From IMG/VR virus record IMGVR_UViG_3300045988_009603: a DNA stretch of 64,000 nt. One strand, given 5' to 3'. Each line of letters starts with the position of its first letter. The first letter of the stretch is position 1. The notes beneath the pieces are model-generated. The model had not been told where the DNA came from. It saw only the letters and a program-made list of their open reading frames with translations, and searched no databases. A program made the translations under genes and the position numbers. Positions 14,739-34,354 of the stretch are shown piece after piece. The stretch comes from a virus. Lineage: Duplodnaviria > Heunggongvirae > Uroviricota > Caudoviricetes.

Positions 14739-14759
14739 CTTGTCAAGTTTTACATAAGG

Positions 14760-15317
14760 TTATTTTTTCTTACAATTGTCAAAATGATATCGAGTCATGT
14801 TACCAGCACCACCAGTCATACCACAATGAGGGCAAGTTTTCTTTTTCTTTGGCTTTTTTCCGGCTTCTGACATCTTCTTCCTTGTTTCTATAGACCTTTT
14901 ACAACCTTTTGATTTTGTATTGCCTATTTGAGATTCTCCTAACCGTCTTCGATGTTCTTCAGTGAAAACCCTACCTTTATTCACAATAGATAGAGCTTTC
15001 GAGTTCAAAGCCCTTACCTTTTCATAGTCTCTGGATGATATTTTCCTATCTAGGCCATCATGGGCTAACCTGTTCCATGCAAACCATAACTTATGATTGT
15101 TTGGATACATCTTAACCAGTAATTTATGAGCTATATAATGCTCTCTAGGTGTAAGTAAAGCAATATTATCTCCACTAATTTTATCGCCACCTAGACATAC
15201 TGGTGTGATATGGTGTCTTTCATAACCCTTACCTTGACATTTGTAGTATGTAAGAGGCACACCCCTTTCAGAATGTGCCTTCTTAATAATTGCATTATAT
15301 ATTAGTTCGTAATTCAT
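14760..15317 (-). CDS. free-standing HNH homing endonuclease
   Basis: HNH core ERHHITPVCLGGDKISGDNIALLTPREHYIAH; Lys-rich C-terminus with CPHCG; alternative start at 15368 overlaps nrdD 3' end. Confidence 0.6.
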   Translation of the reverse strand: MNYELIYNAIIKKAHSERGVPLTYYKCQGKGYERHHITPVCLGGDKISGDNIALLTPREHYIAHKLLVKMYPNNHKLWFAWNRLAHDGLDRKISSRDYEKVRALNSKALSIVNKGRVFTEEHRRRLGESQIGNTKSKGCKRSIETRKKMSEAGKKPKKKKTCPHCGMTGGAGNMTRYHFDNCKKK

Positions 15318-15324
15318 TTGTATG

Positions 15325-16272
15325 CTACATAGAAACCCTATCCTTAATTTCTGCCATCTTAGCGTCATTCATTCGAGACTGACCTTTAATTTTTGTGAAT
15401 GACAAGTACCCGCACACCCTGTTAATCACAGAGATGTCATGTGAATGGCAAACCTCACATTCTTCAACATCAGCCTTTGGTCTGTTACCACAATGTTCAC
15501 AGATTGCTAAGTCAAAGTTAAGTCCCTGATAGAAGCCTTTCAACATCCCTCTTGTAATACAACTTTTAAGTGCTGGTAAGTTTTCTGGGTTAGCTACCCT
15601 TACATACTGGATTCTGCCACCTCTACAAATATGGAAGAATGGTTCTTCTAAGTCCTGCTTCTCAAATGGTGAGATATCTGCTGCAACATTCATATGAAAA
15701 CTGTTTGTAAAGTATTCCTTATCAGAAACACCTTTGATAACGCCAAACATATCTCTGAACTGTTTTAGTTGAGTCCCACAAAGTGATTCTGCTGGAGTAC
15801 CATATACCGCATATAAGAAGCCATCTTCATTCTTAAACTCTTCAGTTTTCATGTTAATGTATGCCAGAACATCGTATGCAAAACTACAGCTTCCAACTTC
15901 ATGAAGTCGTTTACCCTCAGCAAGAACAGATAACTCATCAAGCGCAGTAACACCAAAAGAAGCTGTGAAAGACTTCACAATATCCCAGCCAACCTTGTCA
16001 GTAGGTTTCTTAGTCCCTTTGTACAGACCACCTTGTGTGAATGCAAGAGGGTTAGAGCTTGCTGGCATATTAGCAATCATTTCGTAGCGTTTCTTGTGGA
16101 AGCTGCGAATCATCTCTAGGTACTTATCAAGCTCTTTCCAGAAATCTAAGCCATTCTCTTTAGAATACTGGTAAATCATTGGTAAGTTCAAAGATACAGC
16201 ACCAATGTTAGCACGACCTACATAAAACTCTTCACCATCTTCGTTATGGTATGGTGATAAAAACGCTCTACA
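15325..16272 (-). CDS. nrdD: anaerobic ribonucleoside-triphosphate reductase, exon 2
   Basis: Glycyl-radical motif RVCGYLS and C-terminal Zn site CEHCGN...CEVCH; frame is open upstream of the tracked start back to the proposed 3' splice site. Confidence 0.7.
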   Translation of the reverse strand, partial: CRAFLSPYHNEDGEEFYVGRANIGAVSLNLPMIYQYSKENGLDFWKELDKYLEMIRSFHKKRYEMIANMPASSNPLAFTQGGLYKGTKKPTDKVGWDIVKSFTASFGVTALDELSVLAEGKRLHEVGSCSFAYDVLAYINMKTEEFKNEDGFLYAVYGTPAESLCGTQLKQFRDMFGVIKGVSDKEYFTNSFHMNVAADISPFEKQDLEEPFFHICRGGRIQYVRVANPENLPALKSCITRGMLKGFYQGLNFDLAICEHCGNRPKADVEECEVCHSHDISVINRVCGYLSFTKIKGQSRMNDAKMAEIKDRVSM

Positions 16273-17014
16273 CTTGTTGTTCAGGTAAGTTCGCTACGCT
16301 TACCCCGCTTTATTCAAGCTGCTTACTGTCACCAGTAAGTCCAGACTATATCTTCTACTTATTTCTAAGTAGCGTACCATTTCGAGTCGCTTGACCCTAC
16401 ACCGCTACATTCATCACGGTTAGTCGTTTGGCATTTAGATGTACTCAAATTCATGTTCAAAGTTATTATATTCTTTTACACCCTTCAGTATTGAAGAGAT
16501 AGTCTTGCGATTATACCCAAGTATCTTGGATAACTCTCGTATCGAGTTCGCAACAATAACTTCTTTTGTTACTTTGTGTGTAGCCTTCACAGCATATGAA
16601 CGCTTACAAAACTTGTAGCAACCATTCTCATAACCTTCTTTAACATTCTCAGAATGAGTTCCCCATTCTAAGTTAGAAGCATGGTTATTCAGTTTGTTGT
16701 CATCTTTGTGTTTTACAATTGGAAGATTGTTCGGGTTAGGTACATATTTCTCAGCAACTAACCTATGAACATACATGTCACGATTCTTCTTACCGTAAAA
16801 CCTCACTTTCATATACCCAGTGTTGGATTTCCACTGCTTAAGTTCTACACCATTTTTCCTAAAGACTCTTCCATCTTCAGTAACATGATAATTTGGCATG
16901 TAATACTCCTATGTTATATAGTTTCTTACATCGTACATCATTTAGCACAGGATTGTCTACATCTGTAGAGTTTCCCTGTTTAGGCACGTTTTAGATGAGC
17001 TATAGAGCTTGTTA
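16273..17014 (-). mobile_element. group I intron in nrdD carrying an HNH endonuclease ORF
   Basis: Minus-strand P-like (AAACAGGGAAAC), Q-like (AATCCTGTG), S-like (AGATATAGTC) elements; P1 pairing exon ATGGGT with intron GCTCAT giving U.G at the 5' splice site; intron ends in G; spliced junction reads ...ISPMG|CRAFLSPY... Confidence 0.65.
16435..16899 (-). CDS. intron-encoded HNH-type homing endonuclease
   Basis: Motif HRLVAEKYVPNPNNLPIVKHKDDNKLNNHASNLEWGTHSEN; located between intron Q and R elements. Confidence 0.65.
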   Translation of the reverse strand: MPNYHVTEDGRVFRKNGVELKQWKSNTGYMKVRFYGKKNRDMYVHRLVAEKYVPNPNNLPIVKHKDDNKLNNHASNLEWGTHSENVKEGYENGCYKFCKRSYAVKATHKVTKEVIVANSIRELSKILGYNRKTISSILKGVKEYNNFEHEFEYI

Positions 17015-18211
17015 ACCCATCGGTGAAATTACCTTGCCAGAACGCTCAAAAGCCTCTGCTACAGCACCATGACCAGATACACTTAAGAAATCTGGATACA
17101 TAGCTTTAGAGCAACACTCTATAGCTTTTTCAAACAACCTTGCTTGGCATACATCAAGCTTATGTCTTGTCTCTTCATAGATATACACAAGTTTAGGGAA
17201 CACCACAGGTTTTTTGCTTTTACCTTGCCCATTCATTCTTACATTAAGAATTGTATTAGCAATCATAAACTGAAGACGGTTATCTTCATTGTGCATATCT
17301 GGTTCCAGCAAACCAAATGTCAGAGTAGTAAATGCAAAATCACCGCGACTGCAAGGAACAGTGTTAAGTTTCATTTCAAGAGATTGGAAACCCTGTGTTA
17401 ACTCATTCTGTAGTTGTTCCATTACGTAATTATAGTGTTGCTCTTTAGGGATTCCGTACTCTTCAGCTTTCTCTGAATGGTACACTAAAGACTTCTTAGC
17501 ATACGGTACAAGCACCTTATCAATCTCTGCTAAAGTAAATCCACCAAATTGCTGTGCAGTTGCTGAAAGAACTACATCACCAATAACCTGTAAGGCTGAC
17601 AGCACAGACTTTGGTTCACAGTATTCAATGCCAGACATTTCAAAGCCACCTTTTAGTACTTTACCAATGTCAAACAGGCAACAGTTGATACCACCAAAAA
17701 TTAGGTCTCTTAAGTCATGGATGTAGATAAATCCTTTTTCAATGGCTTCAAGTTCCTCTGGTGTTAAATGGTACTGTTTAAAGATTTCTTTAGTCAGGTA
17801 ACCACGAATAATTGAACCTTTTGTAGAAATTAAACTGCTGTCAAAGTTAGCATTTTCACGGTCACCTAAGAAGAGTGTGTCTTTAGTCTTCTGGTAAAGC
17901 TCATCCCAATTTTGAGCAACCTCTTTACGGTAATTTCTATATGTTGAGTAAGACTCATAAATCTCGTGATTTACTTCTGCCAAAGCACCCTCAACAATGC
18001 TGTGAATATCGTTTACTGAGATGAGCAAATTATTCTGCTTAGTGGACTTTACCAGAATCCTCATAAATGCTGATTCAAGAGCTTGGGTAACATCTGGTGG
18101 CAGTTCTTTATATCCAACCCTGTTAGCTGACTTAGTTACTGCTGCTAAAACTTTTTTGATATCCGGTTCTTCAAGTGAGCCATTCTTTTTAATAATTTGT
18201 ACTTTGTTCAT
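17015..18211 (-). CDS. nrdD: anaerobic ribonucleoside-triphosphate reductase, exon 1
   Basis: 399 aa ORF read as the N-terminal part of NrdD; its tracked stop lies inside the intron. Confidence 0.7.
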
Positions 18212-18230
18212 TATTGCCCCTTTACATGCT

Positions 18231-18256
18231 AAAAAGGTCTCCGAAGAGACCCTTTC
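18231..18256. terminator. bidirectional hairpin terminator (GGTCTC-CGAA-GAGACC)
   Basis: Perfect stem-loop with flanking A-run and T-run. Confidence 0.4.
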
Positions 18257-18259
18257 ATT

Positions 18260-18466
18260 TTAAATCTTTTTAGAAAACTTCGAAAAGAGTTCTCTTAGTT
18301 TTTCAGTGATACCTAACTGTATTTCTAATATTTCAAAGATAACCCATAGTAACATGGCTCCGAACAACGAACCTTGTTCAAAATCAGTAAATAGGTTAAC
18401 AACAAGCATACCAATCACAATAACTGGTGCATCAACAACCAAACCTTCCCAAAGGCGTTTAAGCAT
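18260..18466 (-). CDS. small membrane protein
   Basis: 68 aa, two hydrophobic segments. Confidence 0.3.
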   Translation of the reverse strand: MLKRLWEGLVVDAPVIVIGMLVVNLFTDFEQGSLFGAMLLWVIFEILEIQLGITEKLRELFSKFSKKI

Positions 18467-18701
18467 TATTCACCTCTGCCATGAAATTCTGTAGCGTTCC
18501 AACAGGTTTTAGGTTTTGACCGTCAGTTTTCATGATGAATGGCATCTGACGAACTGGCATCTGTGCAATATCCATCAGGTCTGACAGCTCATAATCCTGC
18601 CCTAACATTCTCACAACATGGTCAATACCACGAGCTTTCGCAAAATTCTTTGCAGTCTCACACTGAGGGCATCCAGTTTTGGAGTAAATTACATAAGTCA
18701 T
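18459..18701 (-). CDS. glutaredoxin/NrdH-like redoxin
   Basis: Active-site CPQC near N-terminus; 80 aa; adjacent to nrdB. Confidence 0.6.
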   Translation of the reverse strand: MTYVIYSKTGCPQCETAKNFAKARGIDHVVRMLGQDYELSDLMDIAQMPVRQMPFIMKTDGQNLKPVGTLQNFMAEVNNA

Positions 18702-19774
18702 TAAGGAACCTCTAAAAATCCACTATTCAAATCATCTACAACAGTATTCAATAGATACGCACCGTTCTGTTGCTCCTGATTAGCATTCTGCTCTTTATCA
18801 ATTTCCATCTTCTTAATCATATACTTCAAAGGTGGTTCTTTAGGAGCTACAAAATCTCTAGGAATGCCAAACATATCATACAGTGGGGCAGCATTATAGT
18901 AAACCCACTCATGAAGAAGCTTTGTATTTAACCCAACTACAGCACGTCCTTCGGAGAAGATATAATACGACCATTTCTCTTCACTTTCAACTACTTCATC
19001 TAAGATTACTTTAATCTCTGGAAGAATTTGTTGGAAAGCTTTTTGCCACTCATCATCTCTTAAAGTTTCTTTTAAAACTTCAATATCAATTTTAGTGTGA
19101 AGGATTTCGTCAAGCATAATTTTCTGGACAGCTTGAGCAATACCTTGAAATTTATCTTGAGCATCAAGTGCAAAAGTACATGCAAAGGATGCCATAAAAG
19201 AAATGCCTTCAAGTGCAGTCACTGCAAATAGACCTTTTAGAATCACTTTATGGAAGTGCAAAGGGTCTTTGTCCAGAAGTGAGTCACGGACATAGCTTAG
19301 CCGATAGTTTATACCTTCATCTAGTAATTCTTCAAGAACACGATTCACAGTTTTTAATCGGTCTTGTACAGCAATATTCTGGTTAATCTCATCTAAGATT
19401 GTTTCAGGATTTTTAATACATTGTCTTACAATCTCCGAGTAAGTAAGAGCATGTAGGTTTTCAATCTCAGACTGCTTCATAATTGAAGTTGCATAAATGT
19501 CATCAGAGATAAATGGTGCAAAGGCAAATGCTAAGCTCTTAGCAACTTGGGTGTCTGCTTCCCACTGCCACTTAAGAATCTCAAGCATTACACCTGACAT
19601 TGATGCTGGCACACTCTCAAAATCAAGACGTGATTGCTCAAAAGGGAACTCATCTTCTGACCAATCTTGTGCTTTTTGTTGTTTATAGAGTTCAAAGATT
19701 TTTGGGTAGTGCTTATTAAGTGAGTCAAATGTTTTTCTCTCACCACCTAAAAAGATTGGGTGTTGGTTAATCAT
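18701..19774 (-). CDS. nrdB: ribonucleotide reductase small subunit
   Basis: Start set at MINQHPIFLGG (AAGGAG RBS; ATGA overlap with upstream stop); typical R2 length. Confidence 0.75.
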   Translation of the reverse strand: MINQHPIFLGGERKTFDSLNKHYPKIFELYKQQKAQDWSEDEFPFEQSRLDFESVPASMSGVMLEILKWQWEADTQVAKSLAFAFAPFISDDIYATSIMKQSEIENLHALTYSEIVRQCIKNPETILDEINQNIAVQDRLKTVNRVLEELLDEGINYRLSYVRDSLLDKDPLHFHKVILKGLFAVTALEGISFMASFACTFALDAQDKFQGIAQAVQKIMLDEILHTKIDIEVLKETLRDDEWQKAFQQILPEIKVILDEVVESEEKWSYYIFSEGRAVVGLNTKLLHEWVYYNAAPLYDMFGIPRDFVAPKEPPLKYMIKKMEIDKEQNANQEQQNGAYLLNTVVDDLNSGFLEVP

Positions 19775-20028
19775 AGTGTGATTTCTCCTTTCTTTATCAT
19801 CTCTAAGGCTTGTTTTCTGTCTAAAACTTCCCAATTTTCTTTGTTAAACATGTCATAAGGTCTTGCATAGATTTTACCATCTGCTGTAGAGATGTAAGAG
19901 ACACCAGCGACCCATGAGTCATCATTTTGTTTTATCATCATATCTGTGCTACTCACATAGTACAGCGTTTTCCGAGGTTTGTGGAGCAAATATATGGGCC
20001 ACTCGTGATTTGCTATTAAATCTTTCAT
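19771..20028 (-). CDS. hypothetical protein between nrdA and nrdB
   Basis: GGAGAA RBS before MKDLIANHEWP; trimmed from tracked 19771..20112. Confidence 0.35.
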   Translation of the reverse strand: MKDLIANHEWPIYLLHKPRKTLYYVSSTDMMIKQNDDSWVAGVSYISTADGKIYARPYDMFNKENWEVLDRKQALEMIKKGEITL

Positions 20029-20083
20029 AGTTTCTCCAAAGTTAATTTTAGAGGGTCTTTTACGACCCTCATAGTTATTAAAA

Positions 20084-22318
20084 CTAAACACCACAACCCT
20101 CGCAATAAGCATCTTGCAGTGCAGATTTACCTACACCAATGCGACTGTTAAGGTAGTACATGGTTTTCATACCTACTGAGTTGGCATAAATCATGTACTT
20201 CAAAGCCTGAGCCAATGATACCTTCTTAGACTTTGCGTAGTCAACATAGAAGTCTGAAGAGATAGCTTGACCAGTGAACTTTTGAACAATTGCATAACAA
20301 TCAATCAGGTCAAAGGTGTCAATACCCCAAGCAATTTCATAGACATACTTCAACTCTTCATAATCTGGAACAATAAACAGTACGTTACCAGTTGCAGACT
20401 TTTTAGTTAAAATAAAGTCACGAATTGGATACAAGCCATTTGTCGTATTAGTTGCCAGTGAAGAACTCTCATTAGGCATGTAAGCCTCTAATACAGAGTT
20501 ACGGATTCCACCGTTTTCTTTAATACGTTGTGCTAAGTCATCCCAATCATAACGAAGTTTTGCATCATGCTTCTCATCAATCTTCTTGTTAGCTGTCTTC
20601 GGAGGAACCCAACCTTCAGGGTATTTAGTGAACTGCATATACTCAGGCACACCACGTTCTTTAGCAAGTCTTAAAGAAGCTTCGTGTAAGTAGTAAGAGT
20701 GCATTTCAGCAAGCTCATGAAGCTTTGTCTTACCCGCTCTTGAAGAATAGTTCACGTAGTTTTTCGCAAGGTAATGAGCCACATTTGTAAGGCCAATCCC
20801 AACAGAACGACGCTTCTGAACATGGTTACGCATCGACGGATACGGATAATCCATAAGGTCAATAACGGAGTCAACCATTGCAAGAGCATAATAAGCAACG
20901 TCAGCGTATTCATCTTCTGAAATTCTCCCTGCAACCAAACTAGCTAGGAAGCAAAGAGCTACCTCACCATCCTCTTTCACAGCGTCATCTCTGTAAAGGT
21001 CTGTCTCTTTCTCAAAGCCGTACACTGGCAACACAATTTCCATACAAAGGTTTGACATCTTCAAAGGCTCTTTAAATGGTGTATGTGTGTTTGCATTATT
21101 TGTGAAGAATGGATACACACGGCCTGTTGCATAACGCTGCTGGATAAACAGTTTAGCAATTTCACGAGCCTTCACACGTCTGTGTTTGACACCTGAATGT
21201 ACTGCATGACCAACTGCCATAGCAAACTCATCAGCAGATGCTGTGTAGAACATGTCATAGAGCTTTGGTGCATCCTTGTAAGAGAATAACAACCAGTCTG
21301 TATCATATTGAACACACTGCCAGAAGTAATCATTTGTACCAAATGAGTAGTCCATCTCGTTAATACGTTTCGAAGGAACCGTTGTAGGGTGCTTCAAACG
21401 CAGTAAATCTTCAATCTGTGGGTCTAGAGCAGTGTAGAAGTTGTTAGCTGAACCACCACGACTCTTCTGTTTGTTTGCCTCTACAGATGAGCGTACAAGC
21501 TTGTAATAAGGCAGTTTACCCATGTGCTCAATAGTATTTTGACGGATACCATCACCAATAGTACGAGTCTCCATCAGCATCCCAATGCCAGCTTGCTTTG
21601 TAGTCATATCATAAGCAACCTTTGCAGCAATACCGAGAGATTCAGCGGTATCATTCGCCTTAATCAAACAGCACGACGCATAACCTGATTTAGTAGCTCT
21701 TAAACCATTCAGATAAGGCGTAGGAGCGTTAATCTTCAGGTCAGATAGGTAAGTGTACAGCTTAATCACATCTTGCAGCCTACGGTGCTTTGGTTGCTTC
21801 TCAAAGGCTTTCATAGCCATACCCATAAACATAAATTGTGGTGACTCAAAAAGTCTTCCTGTTTTAATATCACGGATACCATACTTGTCTCTGAACTGTT
21901 TCAGGACTGCATAACCGTAAGAGATATCCTTTGAGTGCACAATGTACCCTTGCAGATATTCAAGCTCTTCCTGAGAATAGTCCATCTTCTCCCAAAGTCC
22001 TGCTCTCTCCATATTTTTAACGAAGGTAACCAGCGTAGGAACCTTAGTAAAGCCTCCAAAGGCTTCTTTGTAGATAATTCCCAGAAGTAGCCGTCCAGCC
22101 ATGTCTGAGTACTCTTGAGTTTGTTTATCAACACAAACATCAATCATGGCTTGGTGCATCTCTTTTGTAGTGCAACCTTCATAGACACGTTTCATAGCTT
22201 CCATAGTGACTTCTGACCAGATAATCCCACGCTTATCTGCCCATGATGCCCACTTATTCAATCTTTCTGGGTCAAAGCTTACTACTGTACCATTTGATTT
22301 TTTAATTGTCTTAATCAT
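20084..22318 (-). CDS. nrdA: ribonucleotide reductase large subunit
   Basis: 744 aa; C-terminal CEGCGV tail typical of class I R1; start within the N-terminal ATP-cone region. Confidence 0.8.
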   Translation of the reverse strand: MIKTIKKSNGTVVSFDPERLNKWASWADKRGIIWSEVTMEAMKRVYEGCTTKEMHQAMIDVCVDKQTQEYSDMAGRLLLGIIYKEAFGGFTKVPTLVTFVKNMERAGLWEKMDYSQEELEYLQGYIVHSKDISYGYAVLKQFRDKYGIRDIKTGRLFESPQFMFMGMAMKAFEKQPKHRRLQDVIKLYTYLSDLKINAPTPYLNGLRATKSGYASCCLIKANDTAESLGIAAKVAYDMTTKQAGIGMLMETRTIGDGIRQNTIEHMGKLPYYKLVRSSVEANKQKSRGGSANNFYTALDPQIEDLLRLKHPTTVPSKRINEMDYSFGTNDYFWQCVQYDTDWLLFSYKDAPKLYDMFYTASADEFAMAVGHAVHSGVKHRRVKAREIAKLFIQQRYATGRVYPFFTNNANTHTPFKEPLKMSNLCMEIVLPVYGFEKETDLYRDDAVKEDGEVALCFLASLVAGRISEDEYADVAYYALAMVDSVIDLMDYPYPSMRNHVQKRRSVGIGLTNVAHYLAKNYVNYSSRAGKTKLHELAEMHSYYLHEASLRLAKERGVPEYMQFTKYPEGWVPPKTANKKIDEKHDAKLRYDWDDLAQRIKENGGIRNSVLEAYMPNESSSLATNTTNGLYPIRDFILTKKSATGNVLFIVPDYEELKYVYEIAWGIDTFDLIDCYAIVQKFTGQAISSDFYVDYAKSKKVSLAQALKYMIYANSVGMKTMYYLNSRIGVGKSALQDAYCEGCGV

Positions 22319-22336
22319 TTTTGAATCCTACAGATG

Positions 22337-22358
22337 AAAAGAGCCTCCGAAGAGGCTC
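22337..22358 (-). terminator. intrinsic terminator (GAGCCTC-CGAA-GAGGCTC)
   Basis: 7 bp stem, tetraloop, U-run on minus strand. Confidence 0.5.
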
Positions 22359-22364
22359 CCTAGT

Positions 22365-22703
22365 TTAAATCTTGAAAATTTGCTCATTCTGCCACATATC
22401 GTAAAACTTATCACTTACTTTTGTGACTGAAGAAGTGTGCATACAATTCAGGGAGAACCATGATGATGTATTATCATCCATAATTGTTTCAAGTTTTTGT
22501 GTAACGTTCACATCCATGTCTGCAACAACGTAATTACCTCGCATCTTGCAAACAATTCTTCCAAACAAGATTGCACTTCTGCCTCTTCGGTCATCACAGT
22601 ACATAACTGTGTCTCCGTGCTTAACGTCTTGTCCGATACTGTCAACACCTAACTTAGCACCTGAGATAATGTCATCATAAGATAACTTTTTTGCTTTAGA
22701 CAC
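22365..22703 (-). CDS. hypothetical protein
   Basis: 112 aa ORF. Confidence 0.35.
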   Translation of the reverse strand: MSKAKKLSYDDIISGAKLGVDSIGQDVKHGDTVMYCDDRRGRSAILFGRIVCKMRGNYVVADMDVNVTQKLETIMDDNTSSWFSLNCMHTSSVTKVSDKFYDMWQNEQIFKI

Positions 22704-23028
22704 GGTATTTCTCCAAGTTTCTTTTTAGATATAACCAACCATAGTCAGTTCTTTCTACACCCATGAAGAGTGGAGCCATTACAACTTTACCAAAAGTATT
22801 TCTGTGTAGGCAGATTTCAAAGGAATACTCTTTCTCAATATCAATCCCATATTTGTACAGGACTGCTTTTAAAACTTGTTCATTATCCAGAAGTGTATCT
22901 GGAGTCTCACCATACTTCTCAAGTAACGGGTCATTCATAAACACCGTCATCGAAATATTGTAGTTTGAGAAGTGGCTCTTCTGAGCCACAACCTCTTTAT
23001 TAATGTTCTGTGAATCCATTATAACCAA
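22696..23028 (-). CDS. hypothetical protein
   Basis: 110 aa ORF. Confidence 0.35.
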   Translation of the reverse strand: MVIMDSQNINKEVVAQKSHFSNYNISMTVFMNDPLLEKYGETPDTLLDNEQVLKAVLYKYGIDIEKEYSFEICLHRNTFGKVVMAPLFMGVERTDYGWLYLKRNLEKYRV

Positions 23029-23755: not shown

Positions 23756-23994
23756 TCGGACTCCTTAAAATATTTGTTAACCTTTATCTCTCGTGTTTCA
23801 ATATATTCCAGATGCTCACGTAGCTCTTGACGTTTAAGCATTAGGTGCTGCATTTGAGATTCAACAGCTTCAACCTCTTTAATTATTGACTCTCTGGCAT
23901 TTGCAAGAATGCGCTCAAGTTCTTCAATCTTACTGTCAACTTTTGCTACATGACTCACAGCTTTACTTTTGTTAAACATTTTATTCTCTCTCAA
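23731..23994 (-). CDS. hypothetical coiled-coil protein
   Basis: 87 aa, heptad-like charged sequence. Confidence 0.3.
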   Translation of the reverse strand: MRENKMFNKSKAVSHVAKVDSKIEELERILANARESIIKEVEAVESQMQHLMLKRQELREHLEYIETREIKVNKYFKESECLTQENQ

Positions 23995-24000
23995 TAGTTA

Positions 24001-24498
24001 TCAAGCACAGTTTGCTTTCATTACCTTATGGATTCTTTTTTCAGCATCTTCATAAGTTTCTTTAGTAATAAACTTAATTGCTGCAATATTGGCATTGTAG
24101 AAGAGTCTGAGCTTAGAGTCAATCCTTTTTGTCATTACATCGAATTTATGTTGGAGGTTTGCTTCACCATAAACTAGGCCACCTTTCGTGTAGTAGGTTT
24201 GGATAATGTAAAAGTCAAAAAATTCCTTTCCAAAGCTCTCGATATCTTTTTTAATATACTCAGAAGAAGTCTCATAAGTCATCCAATCACTCTCCTTAGT
24301 GACTACCTTCTTCCGAGTCTTGCCAGCAACTTTTCTTTTGGTCACACTATTAAGCTGTTTCTTTCCTATGTAATATTGTCCGGTTTTCTTACAGTGTACT
24401 AAATAGACAAAACCAAAATGTTTAGTGGGGTCAACTTCCCCACATAAAGATACCCAATGACCATAGGTGGGACAATTGCCAAATCCTTTAATCTTCAT
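24001..24498 (-). CDS. GIY-YIG family endonuclease (free-standing)
   Basis: N-terminal FGFVYLVHCKKTGQYYIGKK matches GIY-(10-11)-YIG. Confidence 0.5.
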   Translation of the reverse strand: MKIKGFGNCPTYGHWVSLCGEVDPTKHFGFVYLVHCKKTGQYYIGKKQLNSVTKRKVAGKTRKKVVTKESDWMTYETSSEYIKKDIESFGKEFFDFYIIQTYYTKGGLVYGEANLQHKFDVMTKRIDSKLRLFYNANIAAIKFITKETYEDAEKRIHKVMKANCA

Positions 24499-25528: not shown

Positions 25529-25590
25529 TATGACTCTCCATATGAAAAAGCCCCATACTAAGTACAGGGCTTCAAAGTAACTTTTAGAGA

Positions 25591-26448: not shown

Positions 26449-26520
26449 TATTTAAACCTCTATCTCAATTTATGAAGAGTACCAATTCTAGTTTGTTGAT
26501 ACTCTATTGTCAAATATTAA

Positions 26521-26670
26521 TTACTGGAAGTTGTGCTTATCTTTAGAAGCTGCTTTACGTGCAGTTTTTCCAGTTCTTACACGCTTCTCTTCATAGTATT
26601 TTGCTGGTTTGCCAGCAGTGGCTTTTAAGGAATCCCCAAAAACTTTTTCAAATGCTTTAGAGTGTTTCAT
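26521..26670 (-). CDS. small basic protein
   Basis: 49 aa ORF below track cutoff; GGAGA RBS 5 nt upstream of ATG; Lys/Arg-rich. Confidence 0.25.
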   Translation of the reverse strand: MKHSKAFEKVFGDSLKATAGKPAKYYEEKRVRTGKTARKAASKDKHNFQ

Positions 26671-26922
26671 GATATTCTCCGATATACTTGATATTCAAAC
26701 ACATTTTCTTTTATTACAAACAGCCAACCAATATTATGTTGAGGTATAGTAATAGTGACTGTGATAATGCTGTGATGGAACTTTTCTTCTACCTAAACGC
26801 CTCCATCACATTTCATGTAGAGCATTCTATAGAACCTATCAACCTTTGTCAAACACTCTTCCTGAAATTCATTTAAACTTTTTTCTTCAAAGAAGGGTAT
26901 GAACCCCTCTCTTTTATAACTT

Positions 26923-28914
26923 TCACTCAGTTTCGAACGGGCAGTCATCTGCATCCTCACTTAATACAGGTGGAATCGTTGAGCTTTGACGCTGCTCTTC
27001 AGTATAAACTTCACCAGTCTCACGGTCAAACACTTCATCCTCATAATGAGGTAAAGAGTCATCGTAATGGTCTTCAGCTTCACCAATACCAAACTGCTGG
27101 CGAATATTTTCTGCTGCACCGTCAATATCAACACCACATCCAGAAGCTTTGATAAGACGTCCTGTATCTGGATTGTACCAAGTATGACCAGCAATACCTG
27201 TTGACTTACCATGACGACGACACTTAGTTAACTTGATTTTTGTCAAGTTTTTCTTAACAGGGTCTGGGTCAACCTTGTTACGCATTAACAGAATGTTGTT
27301 CATAGAAATCTGGAAATACGCACCAGAACCTTTAATATCCTCTTCAGAGATATCTCCACCTTCAGAGTTGGCTTTCTGACCACCTGCACTCTTACGAACG
27401 TGACATACGTTTACCTGTGCATACTGGTAGCGTTTGCAACGACGCAATAGCTCAGACAAAACTTCCTCTTCATCCGTATCTGAACGTGACAGAGCCAACG
27501 TAATAGGGTCAAGAATAATAATCTTGCAATCTAAGCTGTTAACAAGATAGTCAACAAACTCCAGCAAATTATCTTGGTCAATTGCCCCTTGATGGTCTAC
27601 GATATGGATACGACGACCTTTAGATAGCTCTGCGTGTGCTCCCTTTAGTTCATCCCAATCCCGTTCATCATAAGGAATCTCAGAAATCTGCTTGCTCAGG
27701 TGGATTGCACAGAGCATTTCCATAAGTTCTTCGTAAGTATCTTCTACAGGAATTACACCGATATTATAATCAGTTTCTTTCCAAGCTGAATAAATCATCT
27801 CACGAGTGTAAGCTGACTTACCTACTGAAGATGGTGCTGCAATAGTTGTAATCTCACCTAAACCATAACCACCATAAGTCAGCCTGTTCAAATCTCCGAA
27901 AGACTCTGGGAAAGGAATCAATGGAATCTGACCACGATTCTTCATCGCCTCAAAACCATCTGCAAAGTTCTTGATACCAGCAGGGCAGTAACGAGGTGCG
28001 TTGTAGATACGCTGTTTAAATCCTTCCAGAACTGTGTCTTTCTCTTTATAGAACTTTGTCCACCATTCATTAAGGTCTTTTACACCTTCTGGATACTGGA
28101 ATAAACGAACCTTCTCAATAGGTAGGATGCCAGCGGCCTCTTTGGTAGCTTTAGCACCTGCTTCATCGTTATCAAAGCACAAGTAAATCTCATCAAATGA
28201 TGTGATGTACTGATAGTTGTCTTTGATAGACTTAATGTTTGCACCTGATGGAACAGATACGTGACAGTAATTCTTACGACGAGACTTATCTTTAATTGCC
28301 AGAGAAGTCATGTAGATTGCTGTAGCACATTCCATCTCACCTTCCCAGATGAATAAACGGTTACCACCTTCTGGAGCAATCCATGAACCGAACATTGCCA
28401 GTTCACCTTTAATATCCCCAACACCACCTGAAAAGTCTTTTAGCTTACCACGTAGGTGTTCTTTTGGATGGTCTTCTGGGTAACGGTGACGAACACGGTA
28501 ACCAACATGTTCTAGTTTGCCATCTTCATTACGTTTGTAAGTTGGATAGAAATGTGCATCAATTTCACCATCACTATCAATGTCAACCTTGATACCTAAA
28601 CGTTCAAGGACTTTTGCAGGGATTTTCCTGTCTTTCAAGTCCATTGCTTCTAGGTTTTCTTTTACATCATCTAAATCCATTCCACGGAAAGTACGGTTTT
28701 TATTATCTGAACCAGTAGAATAAGTGCTCACGATTTGTCCTTTATCAAAATCCCACTCTGGGAAACCTTTGTTACAGCTAAAGCAAGTCATCGAATAAGA
28801 ATCATCGTCATGATGGTAGATTGAACCAGCATCTGATGAACCACAACGTGGACATGCACAATGACCAACAAACTGACCAGCCTCTTTCAATTTACGACCT
28901 TTAGACATTAGCAC
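26923..28914 (-). CDS. DNA primase/helicase (zinc-ribbon primase plus DnaB-like helicase)
   Basis: N-terminal CPRCGS...CFSCNKG zinc ribbon; Walker A GLGEITTIAAPSSVGKSAYT; 663 aa. Confidence 0.75.
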   Translation of the reverse strand: MLMSKGRKLKEAGQFVGHCACPRCGSSDAGSIYHHDDDSYSMTCFSCNKGFPEWDFDKGQIVSTYSTGSDNKNRTFRGMDLDDVKENLEAMDLKDRKIPAKVLERLGIKVDIDSDGEIDAHFYPTYKRNEDGKLEHVGYRVRHRYPEDHPKEHLRGKLKDFSGGVGDIKGELAMFGSWIAPEGGNRLFIWEGEMECATAIYMTSLAIKDKSRRKNYCHVSVPSGANIKSIKDNYQYITSFDEIYLCFDNDEAGAKATKEAAGILPIEKVRLFQYPEGVKDLNEWWTKFYKEKDTVLEGFKQRIYNAPRYCPAGIKNFADGFEAMKNRGQIPLIPFPESFGDLNRLTYGGYGLGEITTIAAPSSVGKSAYTREMIYSAWKETDYNIGVIPVEDTYEELMEMLCAIHLSKQISEIPYDERDWDELKGAHAELSKGRRIHIVDHQGAIDQDNLLEFVDYLVNSLDCKIIILDPITLALSRSDTDEEEVLSELLRRCKRYQYAQVNVCHVRKSAGGQKANSEGGDISEEDIKGSGAYFQISMNNILLMRNKVDPDPVKKNLTKIKLTKCRRHGKSTGIAGHTWYNPDTGRLIKASGCGVDIDGAAENIRQQFGIGEAEDHYDDSLPHYEDEVFDRETGEVYTEEQRQSSTIPPVLSEDADDCPFETE

Positions 28915-29101
28915 CTCTTCGTTGTAGTTCTGCCTTCAATCCGTTTTCAATCTTGTCCAGTTCATGAATTTCATCTGCAATCTCTTTCCTTCGTGATTCA
29001 ACTCTCTTAAGACGTTCAATCATTACCTCATTGGAAAGAGATGAGAGTTCCACTAAACGATGGTCAATAACTTTAAAATTATCTTTTACTCTCATCTTCA
29101 T
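28901..29101 (-). CDS. hypothetical protein
   Basis: 66 aa, charged/helical. Confidence 0.3.
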   Translation of the reverse strand: MKMRVKDNFKVIDHRLVELSSLSNEVMIERLKRVESRRKEIADEIHELDKIENGLKAELQRRGANV

Positions 29102-29109
29102 TCTCTCTT

Positions 29110-29853
29110 TTAAATTTTCAGGATAGCTCTTAGCTTACTTTCAAGGTCTTCAAGAGTACCATTATTATGGATAATGTCACGCGCATATTTGGTAGAAATT
29201 CCATTTTCTGAAACATGTGATGAAACTTTATCCACATTGTCTCTTTTTACTTCAATAGTTTGGTGTGCAAATCTGCTCAACCACTCAGCTTCAGAGTCAA
29301 ACCTTAAGTCACTGATTAAAACAACACCTTCTTGATTTCTAAGTGAACAAGATTCAAAGAATCGAACCATCCGTTTTTCGAGGTCTTTAGACCAGAACTT
29401 GTCACCCATAACTTTACGGATAACTTCAGTGCCCCAAATCTGTTGAATTTGCCTTGATGAGAATTTATACTTTTTACTAAACCCCAGACGTGTCAATATG
29501 GTCGGTTTAGCGACCTTCTTAAGCTCCATGATTAATCGTCCTGTTAGCTCTGACATAAGTTTAAAGTCCATATGGTAACGTTCATCTCTGAAGGTGAACT
29601 CAATAGCTTCCGTAACTTTAGGCATAAGTTCAGAGTATGATAAATCAAAAACCTGTGGAGTCTCTTTAGTTTCGCCGTAAAGGTCATTCCATGTCAGGTC
29701 AAATATCTTTGATGCAGATAGCTTAAGATTGTCTGCATAGGCCATTACTGCAACATTGTAGCCATACTCATCTTCTAAGATATTCTTGACAATAGAACAT
29801 GAGGTATCCTTTCCAGAACGTGCTTTTCCAGTAAATGCGATAATATTACTCAT
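29110..29853 (-). CDS. deoxynucleoside monophosphate kinase
   Basis: P-loop FTGKARSGKDT typical of T4 gp1-type dNMP kinases. Confidence 0.55.
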   Translation of the reverse strand: MSNIIAFTGKARSGKDTSCSIVKNILEDEYGYNVAVMAYADNLKLSASKIFDLTWNDLYGETKETPQVFDLSYSELMPKVTEAIEFTFRDERYHMDFKLMSELTGRLIMELKKVAKPTILTRLGFSKKYKFSSRQIQQIWGTEVIRKVMGDKFWSKDLEKRMVRFFESCSLRNQEGVVLISDLRFDSEAEWLSRFAHQTIEVKRDNVDKVSSHVSENGISTKYARDIIHNNGTLEDLESKLRAILKI

Positions 29854-29914
29854 TTTATCTCCATTAATTACTAAAAAGCCCCCAATTAAGGAGGCTTGTA
29901 AGGTTTATAAAGAC

Positions 29915-30727
29915 TTAGTGCAGTTGGTCAGTACTAATCTGTGAATACTCTTTTTCAGCCATAGCTGAGACTTGCTTCACAAAATCGTCACCAAAGTGGA
30001 TGCGAAGCTTCTCTTCAATGATTGAAGCGCCAATGTTTACCAAAACATCATTGATTGCTTGCATACTGACACCACCAGTCATCTCCTCAACGAACTCAAT
30101 GGTTACACCCAACATCTGAGAAAGTTGGATTAGTGCAACAATATTCATCATTGTAGAAATAGCTGGAATCATCAGAGCGACCTTCACCTGTAGTGGTTCT
30201 ACATCAGCTACAGAATCATCTTTCACAGCTTCTGCTAAAGAGTCTTTAGTTTGCTGGATAATCTCTTTGATTCGTGGGTTTAACTCTTCTACACCCCAAT
30301 CAAGTTTTTCATATCGTGACAGCTTCTCTTCCATGCGCTTCTCAAGAGCAGCCATAACAGCACTCGTTGACGAAATTAATAGGTCAACTAGCTCATTATT
30401 ACCTAAGAGCAGTAGTGAGTCTTTTTCTTCAGAGGTCATGGCAATATAGTCATTTTTCTGCATCTCATAAAAAATGAACTCTGCAAGGGCATCAACACCT
30501 ACAACGATAGATGCTAAGGCAAGTGTTTTGTCACACAGCATCATGTTAACCTGTTCTGCAAAAGCACCGTTATCAGACTTATCTTTAGGCAAGTTATAGC
30601 TTGCAGGCATAAACTGTTCTGTGTAGTTGTTTCCACGAAGAATCATAGCCATGCTTTCTACGGCATTGATTAAGAATGCTTCGTCAATACCTTTTTCTTT
30701 AAGCATTTGGTCTACAGTAGTGTTCAT
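29915..30727 (-). CDS. hypothetical protein
   Basis: 270 aa ORF. Confidence 0.35.
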   Translation of the reverse strand: MNTTVDQMLKEKGIDEAFLINAVESMAMILRGNNYTEQFMPASYNLPKDKSDNGAFAEQVNMMLCDKTLALASIVVGVDALAEFIFYEMQKNDYIAMTSEEKDSLLLLGNNELVDLLISSTSAVMAALEKRMEEKLSRYEKLDWGVEELNPRIKEIIQQTKDSLAEAVKDDSVADVEPLQVKVALMIPAISTMMNIVALIQLSQMLGVTIEFVEEMTGGVSMQAINDVLVNIGASIIEEKLRIHFGDDFVKQVSAMAEKEYSQISTDQLH

Positions 30728-30728
30728 A

Positions 30729-31151
30729 TTATTTCTCTCTCAGTTGGTTAAGTTTCTTTCTAGAACATTTTAAGTTTTCTGATGAAGAAAAGTCAAGTGT
30801 CTTTTCAGAACGTGGATAGTAATGTCTATCCCAAGAAGTTTCAACATCGTTAATCAGTGACGCTAGATTACACAGGTCTGTACCACTTTGCAACCTCTTT
30901 TTAAGAGAATCTAGTAAAGCAACTGTATCTTTAGCTTTACGCCTTGCTGTAGCAACATCTTTCATATGCTCAAATACAGAGCATTTTAAGTCATCTTCAT
31001 AGTTTTCAGACAACTCTATTTCATGTTGTATATCAACCATCCTCCTGTGATGGTGAGCATATTCCCGTTGAGCAGCAATGTCAAGTTCTTCCAACTTCTG
31101 CAAAGCTCTAACAAAGTCAGCTATGTCTGGGTGAACAAACATTTTCTGCAT
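30729..31151 (-). CDS. hypothetical protein (first gene of minus-strand operon)
   Basis: 140 aa; adjacent to divergent intergenic region. Confidence 0.35.
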   Translation of the reverse strand: MQKMFVHPDIADFVRALQKLEELDIAAQREYAHHHRRMVDIQHEIELSENYEDDLKCSVFEHMKDVATARRKAKDTVALLDSLKKRLQSGTDLCNLASLINDVETSWDRHYYPRSEKTLDFSSSENLKCSRKKLNQLREK

Positions 31152-31407
31152 GTAAGCCTCTTTTAAGTAACTATTAAGTTTTAATCTTTTATCTTAACGT
31201 ATTCTATACGTTATACTTTAAAGCTTTTTAAAAGCTATTAAATAATCTTTTAAGAGTTTTAAAGTAACTGTATAGTTAAACTGTTAAGTAACCTTTTAAG
31301 TAAAAACCCACTTCGCAAAGATTAACACCTTGTCAAGTACATTGTCAACTTGCTTTTTATAATTTTTTGCAGTAATGTATGAGGTTAATGAATTAGAGGG
31401 AGTACAA

Positions 31408-33550
31408 ATGGAAAACGTAGATTTTAAAAACTTACACTTAGTTGGTGATACAGAAACTGATGGTTTACTCCTTGAGTTCACTAAAGTCCACGTCATGGCT
31501 TTCGCAGACTATAAATCTGACGATGAAGAGCCACCTGTATGGGTCTTTACAGATGAGCCTATCCTCGGTCACAAGTATACCAAGTACATTAAAGGTGGTT
31601 TGCGTGAAGGTATTGAGTTTGCGTTAAAGGCAAAACGGCTTTGCATCCATAATGGTCTGGGGTATGACTGGTGGGTTTTCAATCACATTGCACCTGATTT
31701 GTGGAACTTTGATAATCCAAAGTGTAAGCCGTGGAGTAATTTCTTTCAGGATTCTCTTATCCAGTCTCGTGTTCAGTGGATGGATAGACCAACTCCAAAA
31801 GGCTATAAAGGTGCTCATGGCTTGGCAGCATGGGGTGCTCGTGTTGGTGTACGTAAACCAGAGATTGAACATTGGGGTGTGTGGAATGCAGAAATCTTCA
31901 CTCGTGTTGTAGAGGATATCCGTATTAACGCCAAAACTAAACGAGCACTGGATAATGAATATCTCAAGTTAAAGAAGTGTGGTATAGACACTTATGAAAC
32001 CTATATGCGAGCTAAAGAGACATCTTTCTGGATGAGTCAACAAGCTATTAATGGTTGGAAAGCTGATAAGGAGCTTATGGAGTTCCATGTAAAGGAACTT
32101 GACAAGTTGACTAATGAGCTTGCTTCAGAAGTTGAACCACACCTTCCACCAACTATTAAGACCAAAGGTAAAGTCACTGGAGAAGAGTTTGCAAAAGCTT
32201 GGAATGAGTATGTTGAAGCGTTTGGTCATGCAGATGGACTGAAAAGAATTACCAAGTACCCTAAGACAAAGTATCGTCAGCAGGTACGTAACGGTGAGAT
32301 GCAGACATATGAAATCAAGCCATTTGGTAAGCCAACTACAAAGATTTTTAACATTGAAAAGCGGAATTGCTATACACCAACCAACACTGTAACTGGCGAA
32401 GAGTACAAAGAAGGTTTTGTAGCAATGAAGGATGCTCGTGCAATTTGCAATGAGTTGAATGCAAAGATTGGTAAGAAATGCAAAGACTGGAAGCCAGTAA
32501 AAACAGTCAAAACTGTGAAGTACTATAACAGTCACGTTGTTAACCACTTTGAACTTGAGTCAAGTCGCTACACAGGATTGATTGATGCACCATATACACC
32601 AATTGAGTTTGAAGTTTCTCGTATGACTCAGGTAGCAGTTGTTAAAGACTACTTGAAATCAGTTGGTTGGATTCCAGATGACTGGAACTACAAGAAAGAC
32701 TCAGACGGTCGCCCTGTCAAAGTTTGTCGTTTCAAAGACAATAAAAAGATGATTACAAAGCATCCTAAGTGGCAGGAGATGGTTGAGCGTTGTGGATTGA
32801 GCTATGTTGAACATGAAGGTGTACAGTACATTGAGCATAACTGGTCTGTGAAGAAGTACACAGATTTGCTTGAACCTTGTCTGATTAGGACTTCACCAAA
32901 ACTTACTGAATCATCTTATGATACGATTGAAGGTGAGCTTGGACAGAAGATTGCTAAGTACTACACTTTGATGCACCGACGCAGAACTATTGAGAACTCA
33001 AAGGATGATGAAAAAGGTTGGTTGAACCAGATTCGTCCTGATGGTCGCCTTAGTGCTGGCGCAATGGTGTTTGGTACTTCAACTGGACGTATGACACAAT
33101 ATGGTATTGTAAACGTACCGTCTGGCGCTGCTGTCTATGGAGCACCCATGAGGGAAGTTTGGACTTGTGAAGAGGGTACTAATATTGTTTCAGCCGACAT
33201 GAATAGCGCCCAACTTGTGCTACTGTGTAACTTTATGGGTGATAAAGATTTCACTAAAGCGGTGACAGAGGGTAAAGAAGAGGTTGAGTTTGTTAAACAA
33301 GATGATGGTAGATACTATTGCAAACATTTTGACCAGTATCTAAACCCAGCTATTGACAAGTATTTACATTATGATTCGGAAAATGACTTATACGTGGTGT
33401 ACTCAGGGACTGATGCACATACTTTAAATAGTATCTACTTCAGTCTTAATAAAGAGGAAGACATCTTGACGTGTCGAGCTACTCAGGATACAAATCTTCT
33501 TCAAGAAATTAGTAAAGGTCGTAAGAAAGCCAAAAATGGCATTTATGCGT
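31408..33550 (+). CDS. DNA polymerase (family A), exon 1
   Basis: GAGGGAG RBS before ATG 31408; 3'-5' exo motif VGDTETDGL; motif A IVSADMNSAQL; start of motif B RKKAKNGIYA; exon end set by intron P1 pairing. Confidence 0.75.
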
Positions 33551-34354
33551 CAGTGGCGCATGTAAAACGTTGTGAATTGCTGGAAGCCTAAGTCTGTAAA
33601 GATATGGTAATCAGCAGCGAAGTCTCTGTTAGGACTCCTAAAACAAAGGAGAGAGAGACAATGGCAGGTTACGAAGAGAGATTATGCACTGAGTGTGGCA
33701 CGGAGTTTAAACCATACCAATACAATCAGAAACGGTGCAGAAGCTGTGTATTAAAATTTGACAGAAGGGCAGAACACAGGGTTCTTACTAAGAAATGCCC
33801 TAGCTGCGAGAAGGTGTTCATGCCGAGAACAGCAAGGCAAGTTTATTGCTCTTCACATTGCGGTGAGAAAGGTAGAGTTAAAAATTACTACCTAAGAACA
33901 TATGGCTTGGAAAGGGAAGAGGTTGAAGCTCTACTCCGCAACTGTGATTACAAATGTCAAATTTGTGGCGGTGAAGGTTTTATCATGAATGGTTCACGAC
34001 ACAAGGCTAAACTTGTTGTTGACCATGACCACAAAACCGGAAAGGTAAGAGGTATGCTATGCCACAATTGCAACAGAGCTTTGGGGTTGCTTGCAGATAG
34101 CGTTGATAATATGCAAAGAGCAATTGACTACCTAAGCAAATAATATAATTGTAGAGATTCCTAACAGAGAAACGTTCAGAGACTATCGAAAAGCATACTT
34201 AACGTATGAACTGAGTAGAGTAGGGTGGTAAGCTAATGACCATCCCCAAGTGCAACGGTAGCACCAATGCTACGTGATATAGTCCGACACTCCGTAGAAA
34301 TGCGGAGAAGTTCATAAGAGAACTGGTACACCTTGCGAGTGTATTGACCAGATG
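33551..34354 (+). mobile_element. group I intron in DNA polymerase gene with HNH endonuclease ORF
   Basis: P (GAATTGCTGGAA 33574-85), Q (AATCAGCAGC 33609-18), R (GTTCAGAGACTA 34174-85), S (GATATAGTCC 34276-85); P1 exon ATGCGT pairs intron GCGCAT; ends in G 34354; exon lengths sum to 2700 nt. Confidence 0.75.
33661..34143 (+). CDS. intron-encoded HNH endonuclease
   Basis: AAGGAGAGAG RBS; Cys-rich N-terminus; VVDHDHKTGKVRGMLCHNCNRALG HNH core. Confidence 0.7.
   Translation: MAGYEERLCTECGTEFKPYQYNQKRCRSCVLKFDRRAEHRVLTKKCPSCEKVFMPRTARQVYCSSHCGEKGRVKNYYLRTYGLEREEVEALLRNCDYKCQICGGEGFIMNGSRHKAKLVVDHDHKTGKVRGMLCHNCNRALGLLADSVDNMQRAIDYLSK

Follow-up and report, generated by a model that had tools for sequence, protein, structure and literature searches.

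Two intron-borne and one free-standing HNH gene as probable homing elements in the replication and nucleotide-metabolism region of a Felixounavirus phage

The region and its genes

The DNA analysed here, a stretch of 64,000 nucleotides (nt) from the viral record IMGVR_UViG_3300045988_009603 of IMG/VR and referred to below as the window, belongs to a Felix O1-like phage of the genus Felixounavirus. Its best match is Escherichia phage JH2, with 95.7% identity over the 21-kb region considered in this work, and over 200 members of this genus of Felix O1-like phages match it at 92-96% identity. As a myovirus of the Felix O1 type, the phage has its module for replication and nucleotide metabolism here, which comprises, as annotated in JH2 and Felix O1, the genes nadV, prs, nrdG, nrdD, grx, nrdB, nrdA, mazG, and those for an exonuclease, a primase/helicase, and a deoxynucleoside monophosphate kinase, followed by the divergently transcribed genes for a family-A DNA polymerase (pol) and a ligase, also in the order of the JH2 and Felix O1 annotations. 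Four endonuclease open reading frames (ORFs) had been placed among these genes by an earlier inspection of the same DNA (the original prediction), and all four are present, each matching nuclease profiles. They were read as homing genes and their sites as hot spots of mosaicism. This reading holds for the HNH ORFs in nrdD and pol and for a free-standing HNH gene next to nrdD, all of them polymorphic and cleanly bounded, with intron-less alleles known, that of Felix O1 included, and with pol mosaic in sequence; it does not hold for the GIY-YIG gene 24001-24498, nor for ORF 11790-12305. The region thus very probably contains three independent homing elements, namely two putative group I introns with HNH ORFs and one free-standing HNH gene, and two genes that are not mobile. 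The features are listed in Table 1.

The sites were compared in about 60 Ounavirinae loci (designated L with a number), which were fetched and in which the gaps between anchor genes were measured, and the introns were counted among the about 220 felixounavirus records of the whole phage collection.

Table 1. Positions in the window of the features discussed in the text
Feature	Position	Strand	Remarks
Empty site between nadV and prs	10581..10626	.	Gap of 49 nt in the window; in Felix O1 and others the gap is about 520 nt and holds an HNH-AP2 gene
Conserved ORF, 171 amino acids, unknown function (PHROG 3500)	11790..12305	-	HNH-like motif by eye only
Free-standing HNH cassette (predicted homing endonuclease), 569 nt	14757..15325	-	Directly after the nrdD stop codon
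Free-standing HNH ORF, 185 amino acids	14760-15317	-	N-terminal colicin-type HNH motif, NUMOD3, C-terminal Cys-rich tail
nrdD exon 2	15325..16272	-	315 codons and stop; aligned to the uninterrupted Felix O1 nrdD
Putative group I intron in nrdD, 742 nt	16273..17014	-	Boundaries from the intron-less Felix O1 allele
I-HmuI-like HNH ORF (predicted homing endonuclease), 154 amino acids	16435..16899	-	In the P6 loop of the nrdD intron
nrdD exon 1	17015..18211	-	399 codons: ATP-cone and N-terminal part of NrdD
Short GIY-YIG-domain protein, 165 amino acids	24001..24498	-	Fixed in Ounavirinae; Pfam PF19835, PHROG 447
Empty site at the exonuclease/GIY-YIG junction	24488..24498	.	Genes overlap by 11 nt in the window (entered as a gap of -8 in the gap table)
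Family-A DNA polymerase exon 1	31375..33550	+	Start codon uncertain, 31375 to about 31408
Putative group I intron in pol, 804 nt	33551..34354	+	Boundaries from Felix O1
Endonuclease-VII-type HNH ORF (predicted homing endonuclease), 160 amino acids	33661..34143	+	Wholly within the P6 loop of the pol intron
Polymerase exon 2	34355..34911	+	Splice alignment to Felix O1

The intron in nrdD

The nrdD gene, which codes for the anaerobic ribonucleotide reductase, is interrupted between the codons GGT (Gly) and TGT (Cys) of the sequence P-M-G|C-R-A-F, so that TGT, coding for the catalytic Cys, is the first codon of exon 2. Joined, the exons are in frame and colinear with the Felix O1 gene and give an nrdD of 2145 nt, equal to that of Felix O1. 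The matching motif of a T4-like NrdD, P-M-G-C-R-S-F, lies at about residue 290, and Cys290 of T4 NrdD is the thiyl-radical cysteine. Exon 1 ends in U and the final base of the intron is G; P1, read from the sequence, pairs exon GAUGGGU with intron GCUCAUC and has a U.G pair at the splice site, while P10 comprises 8 bp, formed by intron GCUCUAUA with exon 2 UGUAGAGC, adjoins the P1 guide, and is also found by minimum-free-energy folding. The z-score of the intron fold is -3.8. Searched in E-value mode, the window intron scores 35.4 bits (E=5e-7) with the Rfam family Intron_gpI, in a match split by the ORF; the 316-nt ORF-less nrdD intron of phage momo, about 97% identical to that of the window in the aligned segments, scores 54.4 bits (cut-off 50).

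The ORF in this intron matches HNH_3 (40.2 bits, cut-off 24.8) and NUMOD1, and its residues 3-140 align with I-HmuI (PDB 1U3E; E=1.3e-10), with KHKDDNKLNN standing opposite DHKDGNKDNN. To judge from these alignments, it is a clear I-HmuI homologue, for which nuclease activity is predicted. A ribosome-binding site, UAGGAG, lies 7 nt 5' of its ATG, and its last codons make up the 3' strand of P6a; the ORF-less copy still carries the UAGGAG site together with the final ca. 33 nt of the ORF. The gap in nrdD takes three values in the loci compared: 742 nt, i.e., intron with ORF, in nine loci including the window, 316 nt, i.e., ORF-less intron, in three, and zero in the remainder, among them those of all other genera. 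Across the census, the nrdD intron is found in ca. 95 of the ca. 220 records, and 60 of these introns contain the ORF.

The intron in the polymerase gene

In pol the insertion lies in motif B, at RKKAKNGIYA|LLFGAG, and splicing would give a gene of 2733 nt, in frame, compared with 2721 nt of the uninterrupted Felix O1 pol. Also here exon 1 ends in U and the intron in G; P1, read from the sequence, consists of exon AUGCGU and intron GCGCAU, with U.G at the splice site, and P10 of 5 bp. The score of the window copy with Intron_gpI in E-value mode is 24.1 bits (E=1e-3), again as a split match, and the ORF-less pol introns of phages Mushroom and pSJ21 score 62.3 and 61.7 bits, respectively (cut-off 50). 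Compensatory changes are seen in P8, where GUAGCA/UGCUAC is replaced by GUAGUA/UACUAC, and at the base of P6, where a U-A pair is replaced by C-G. The ribozyme core is 97% identical (279 of 287 nt) between the window and phage EC6, but their ORFs share only 74% and their exons 70-84% identity.

The ORF of the pol intron belongs to a different nuclease type, matching Endonuclease_7 (PF02945) with 71.4 bits (cut-off 23.6; 5.9e-20). Cys-rich, zinc-ribbon-like repeats at its N-terminus are followed by the HNH core with the catalytic motif DHDH...N...N, and the segment VVDHDHKTGKVRGMLCHNCN aligns to T4 endonuclease VII and Hpy99I. The ribosome-binding site AAGGAG precedes the ATG at 33661. The pol gap is about 780-808 nt in six genomes, including the window (804), 271-314 nt in three, and zero in the other 22 pol loci; in the census, the intron occurs in ca. 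97 of the ca. 220 records, and 41 of these carry the ORF. The comparison of relatives proposed by the original prediction thus reveals empty, ORF-containing, and ORF-less states at both nrdD and pol, and the HNH cassette described below is polymorphic as well.

Assignment to group I introns

Both folds extend from P3 to P9 and include P7.1 and P7.2, with P7 formed by GACUA/UAGUC, an architecture that is typical of T4-type phage introns of subgroup IA2. The curated gathering cut-off of Rfam RF00028 (Intron_gpI) is 50 bits, and a search of the whole window at this threshold gave no match. The matches in the window are split and below the threshold because the ORF is inserted in the P6 loop, and this was resolved with the ORF-less relatives, whose aligned segments are 93-97% identical to the window introns. 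The ORF-less introns are deletion derivatives, as they retain the ribosome-binding site of the ORF and its last 14-40 nt. On these sequence criteria the interruptions of nrdD and pol are group I introns resembling those of phage T4, and the HNH ORFs within them, called intron-borne in the original prediction, do lie between the two halves of each gene inside such an intron. Inteins were considered and rejected, since the ORFs and the host genes are in different reading frames and each exon 1 runs into a stop codon.

Another reading of the same arrangement is that nrdD and pol are truly split genes whose halves are translated apart and then assemble, with a free-standing endonuclease gene between them, as in nrdA of Aeromonas phage Aeh1, split by mobE. 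GenBank annotations listing 'DNA polymerase (x2)' and 'nrdD (x2)' agree with it, as does the literature, where a homing endonuclease is described as interrupting a 'split nrdD gene' (PMC4837284), and at both junctions the frame of exon 1 is closed by a stop only a few codons further on. Yet the interruptions show the full group I core with P1 and P10, the U.G pair, and the terminal G, and versions of 268-316 nt having no ORF still interrupt nrdD and pol. Moreover, the splits fall inside the catalytic loop (Gly|Cys) and polymerase motif B, and exon 2 has neither a start codon nor a ribosome-binding site at either junction, its true first positions, 16272 and 34355, preceding the earliest possible starts, 16191 and 34357, respectively. 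Truly split genes are therefore a very improbable explanation of the two interruptions.

Several points nevertheless weigh against the interpretation as homing introns with an accompanying free-standing homing gene. The window introns, with 35.4 and 24.1 bits against 50, are under the Rfam gathering score, and their family membership therefore rests on the ORF-less orthologues and on the manually identified P1 and P10. The felixounavirus records inspected in GenBank list the gene halves as separate coding sequences. The association of exon haplotype with intron presented in the next section is inflated by relatedness among the sampled genomes. Finally, splicing, nuclease activity, and the homing events are what we infer from the observed domains, boundaries, ribozyme family, P1 and P10, polymorphism, and co-conversion signatures.

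Signatures of homing and mosaicism

In the first 54 nt of nrdD exon 2, about nine sites, most of them synonymous, separate all 12 alleles that have the intron, irrespective of the ORF, from all 11 that lack it, while exon 1 shows no such differences. This intron-linked haplotype of ca. 55 nt is a co-conversion signature; the tract is shorter in one intron-bearing locus (L013), and among the changes that from TGC to TGT additionally gives a better P10. In exon 1 the window segment 17115-17515, located between -500 and -100 from the junction, is 88-100% identical to that of momo and L018, which carry the ORF-less intron, but only 56-88% identical to that of all other genomes, including those with the same intron and ORF. 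The window shares this allele only with momo-type genomes and is therefore itself recombinant around the nrdD site.

At the pol junction the intron-bearing alleles read GCG-T|TA-TTG and most of the intron-less ones GCA-CTG-CTG or GCC-CTG-TTA, and thus the U needed for P1 is encoded by the exon. The last ca. 400 nt of pol exon 1 and the whole of exon 2 show only 62-86% identity among genomes that are 92-100% identical just upstream. Compared with Felix O1, the synonymous divergence (dS) is 3.8 in exon 2 (34355-34911 vs. L002 24830-25362) and 0.39 in exon 1, a roughly tenfold difference. Mosaicism extends over the 3' third of pol, a block that has an endonuclease site on each flank. The ratio of nonsynonymous to synonymous divergence (dN/dS) of the two intron ORFs is 0.02-0.06, and the catalytic motifs are intact in all three endonuclease ORFs, i.e., the two in introns and the free-standing one.

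These data are consistent with a homing cycle in which the nrdD and pol RNAs would self-splice, so that intact NrdD and polymerase would be made, and each intron ORF, looped out of P6, would be expressed from a ribosome-binding site of its own. During mixed infection, an intron-less allele would be nicked or cut by the endonuclease near the insertion site, and repair would copy the intron along with adjoining exon sequence. The free-standing HNH gene presumably spreads by 'intron-less homing', in the manner of the T4 Seg and Mob endonucleases.

The free-standing HNH cassette and the empty endonuclease sites

The free-standing HNH ORF matches NUMOD3 (23.2 bits, cut-off 20.4) and PHROG 655, 'homing endonuclease' (5e-56); its motif of the colicin-E9 type, in which all the H-H-N-H-H residues are aligned, is nonetheless under the Pfam cut-off (19 vs. 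27 bits). In genomes free of the cassette, homology resumes exactly at 15326 on one side and 14756 on the other, with a microhomology of 5-6 nt. About one-quarter of the relatives have the cassette and most do not; it is also found in one locus of another genus (L026, 76% amino acid identity). A second indel, of ca. 375 nt (14321-14695), lies close by and is independent of the cassette; it contains a small ORF (14352-14738; PHROG 8826, unknown function) and is seen only in the window, JH2, momo, and L018.

Three sites that were missed by the original prediction are also hot spots, i.e., the prs|nadV junction, the junction between the exonuclease and GIY-YIG genes, and the region downstream of pol; the window has no insertion at any of them, but many relatives carry HNH-AP2 genes there. 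At the exonuclease/GIY-YIG junction an insertion of ca. 480 nt with an HNH gene, e.g., ORF106 of Felix O1 and gp113 of wV8, is present in about 25 of 58 loci (roughly 40%). The HNH-AP2 gene of the third site lies directly 3' of pol (L004 3606-4142, L005 3580-4113, L002 25366-25869), and the intron-less pol allele 'GCCC|TGTTATTTGGAGCC' is linked to it in seven of seven cases. The gene follows pol in all three genomes sampled that have an ORF-less pol intron; 'collaborative homing' between such introns and the downstream gene was considered and rejected, no exclusive link being present because about 10 of 16 intron-less genomes have the HNH-AP2 gene as well.

No other endonuclease genes were found in the window by a Pfam scan, by phmmer with the Felix O1 endonucleases, or by a Pfam search of 10 extra ORFs; the scan was not exhaustive, and as it gave the best 25 families for 88 ORFs taken together, further weak HNH matches may be present.

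The GIY-YIG gene

The protein encoded by 24001-24498 matches PHROG 447 along its full length and, with residues 21-138, the Pfam domain SegE_GIY-YIG (PF19835; 97.4 bits, cut-off 25, 9.4e-28). GFVY, YIGKK, R62, E112, N114, and N135 are invariant or nearly so in its homologues. A second Pfam domain was not found, nor was a separate C-terminal DNA-binding domain; among 2266 representatives of the family, short forms of about 135-180 and long forms of about 230-360 amino acids occur, and the window protein is one of the short ones.

The original prediction counted this gene among the mobile insertions, and the comparison of relatives that it proposed gives the opposite answer: every Ounavirinae locus examined, including those of other genera, has the gene in this place, and it is under strong purifying selection. 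The amino acid identity between loci is 61-100%, with 86-87% in genera where it is about 82% for NrdD and about 78% for MazG, and 61% in the most distant locus; proteins at least 60% identical are encoded in about 300 records. The dN is about 0.08 and the synonymous sites are saturated, which puts dN/dS at about 0.035-0.06, a constraint equal to that on the exonuclease gene and tighter than that on mazG, nrdD, and nadV. The start of the gene overlaps the exonuclease stop codon by 11 nt, which we read as translational coupling. Cyanophage homologues with 30-36% identity (hhalign probability 99%) are present in about 390 records of T4-like cyanophages and lie, e.g., in L117 (3974-4414) and L118 (3887-4381), a few kb downstream of nrdA-nrdB, the position of denA in T4.

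The gene is fixed and not mobile, and by all these characters it appears to be a functional, nuclease-like core gene. The protein may, tentatively, be regarded as a domesticated nuclease with a core phage function and not the product of a selfish gene; it might, for example, initiate the breakdown of host DNA or take part in DNA processing with the coupled 5'-3' exonuclease. It could alternatively be an ordinary homing endonuclease that was swept to fixation and stands at the end of the homing cycle, serving the phage in no way. Homing endonuclease families (SegE_GIY-YIG and PHROG 7363) do give its best profile matches, the longer members of the family (230-360 amino acids) resemble complete Seg-type enzymes, and the gene adjoins a real endonuclease insertion site. 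A fixed and functionless endonuclease gene would, however, be expected to decay, whereas this one is intact in every genus examined and has the low dN/dS given above; the invariance of the catalytic-type residues, the translational coupling to the exonuclease gene, the conservation of the homologues near nrdAB in cyanophages, and the lack of a DNA-binding extension argue in the same direction. We therefore regard such a functionless end point as unlikely.

Orthology to T4 DenA or to I-TevI was considered and rejected, as the hhalign probabilities are below 1%. Sequence and profile searches of PDB with the protein gave no match, and the top Foldseek match of its model, in which residues 107-147 are unreliable, is the catalytic domain of I-TevI, at a non-significant E of about 1. 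The label 'NAD synthetase', borne in GenBank and PHROG 447 by the gene as well as by its homologues in cyanophages, is wrong, apparently through propagation of an error.

ORF 11790-12305 and its surroundings

The ORF located at 11790-12305 contains GHHKPVTKGGEHHCANWFIQTKLDNQKQG, and the weak HNH-like motif reported for it in the original prediction is visible by eye, although no convincing nuclease profile match accompanies it and the ORF is fixed. It is present in all the Ounavirinae loci, with 73-99% amino acid identity, a mean column identity of 91% among 14 homologues, and dN/dS of about 0.12; being thus distributed and conserved, it is not mobile on this time scale, and it is best placed, judging by conservation, among the fixed, selectively constrained core genes outside the mobile load. 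It might also be a degenerate or divergent HNH homing endonuclease: the arrangement HH-x5-GG-x6-N-x8-DN resembles HNH/HNN motifs, the low-confidence structural model has a strand-strand-helix at the motif, and there is a weak match to PHROG 2214 (HNH; 3.6e-4), the sole profile support. No match was obtained in Pfam or NCBIfam, hhalign against the window's own HNH was negative, the PDB profile search returned only spurious Protein A repeats, and the AlphaFold model is unusable, its predicted local distance difference test score being 37. We regard a degenerate or divergent HNH homing endonuclease as an unlikely reading of this ORF.

Between this ORF and nrdG lie two small ORFs (12358-12669 and 12681-12929) with sharply different alleles in relatives (about 50% vs. 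86-99% amino acid identity). They form another mosaic patch, in which no recognisable endonuclease is present in the window.

Annotation and use of the system

The system in these phages is of an ordinary, well-understood kind, and the additions made here are modest: the exact anatomy of the introns, a census of their three states, a clean haplotype indicating co-conversion, and a new classification for the GIY-YIG gene. The nrdD and pol genes of Felix O1, 2145 and 2721 nt long, are uninterrupted (PMC3185647), as is also seen in our own alignment, and the Felix O1 genome paper, which reported no introns, is right with respect to its strain. Among Felix O1-like phages, split nrdD genes with an intervening homing endonuclease were already on record (PMC4837284), and phage introns in ribonucleotide reductase and polymerase genes are textbook material (PMC3653736, PMC2988022); our search of the literature on Felixounavirus yielded no paper reporting a group I intron.

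The halves of nrdD and pol, as exons of intron-containing genes, should be joined in annotations, otherwise gene counts, core-gene phylogenies, and polymerase trees will be distorted. The 'NAD synthetase' label could mislead surveys of phage NAD metabolism, especially with real NAD-salvage genes nearby. With all three stages of the homing cycle at two sites, each with an intron in roughly 95 of the ca. 220 genomes, and with at least four further free-standing sites, Felixounavirus offers a test bed for homing, tractable in E. coli and Salmonella, in which homing, ORF loss, and co-conversion may be measured.

Two further observations were made. Upstream of the NAD-salvage genes nadV and prs (8799-11526) the window contains an ORF for a Macro-domain protein (179-964, minus strand; Pfam PF01661, 1e-07). 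Several entries named as Campylobacter phages, MG065668 (A126), MG065664 (A132), and MG065644 (A147), match felixounavirus DNA or protein at 96-98% identity and are probably mislabelled or contaminated.

Comparison with known systems

A close parallel is that of the T4 introns in td, nrdD (sunY), and nrdB, with their endonucleases I-TevI, I-TevII, and I-TevIII. The 3' half of the window nrdD intron is 71% identical to the T4 td intron, its identity with the 5' part of the T4 nrdD intron is 81%, and a 42-nt core segment is 97.6% identical to the nrdD introns of T4 and T4-like phages. The T4 intron ORFs are likewise looped out of P6. The two nrdD introns differ in the insertion site, located at about residue 180 in T4 and at Gly|Cys of the catalytic loop in the window, and in the endonuclease, an I-HmuI-type HNH in the window in contrast to a GIY-YIG enzyme or I-TevII in T4. 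JEP1, an rV5-like phage (Vequintavirus), has an intron with an HNH gene at precisely this Gly|Cys site, the core being 72% identical to that of the window; its nrdD (L116 1414-5043) is annotated as three pieces with two ORFs between them, and the downstream interruption is the one at the window's site. The nrdD intron of JSE, an RB49-like phage, is 79% identical over 76% of the core. Both phages belong to other subfamilies than the window phage.

The pol intron resembles those of the Bacillus phages SPO1, SP82, and phi-e in being a group I intron with an HNH ORF in the family-A DNA polymerase gene of a virulent phage. The introns of these phages encode HNH nickases of the I-HmuI family (Goodrich-Blair and Shub 1994, cited in PMC3653736). 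The window ORF in pol differs from them, as it is of the endonuclease-VII/Hpy99I type and in phages of another host group, and the similarity of the window introns to those of Bacillus phages is confined to short core stretches; the direct homologue of I-HmuI in the window is the ORF in nrdD, not that in pol. The pattern of similar introns with highly divergent ORFs described in the Bacillus HMU phages is matched by the pol introns of the window and EC6, whose identity was given above.

The free-standing cassette is comparable with the T4 genes for SegA-G and MobA-E, which are also compact endonuclease genes located between conserved genes beside nrd, polymorphic in relatives, and with mosaic flanks; the window HNH belongs, however, to PHROG 655 and, as far as tested, not to the Mob family. 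The GIY-YIG gene shares a SegE-type catalytic domain with the Seg-type enzymes (PF19835), but having no DNA-binding domain and not being polymorphic, it is not a Seg-type mobile gene. Like T4 endonuclease II (DenA), its product is small and consists of the domain only, and the cyanophage homologues lie 3' of nrdAB as does T4 denA; hhalign finds no similarity between the two proteins, so by sequence the window protein is not a DenA orthologue.

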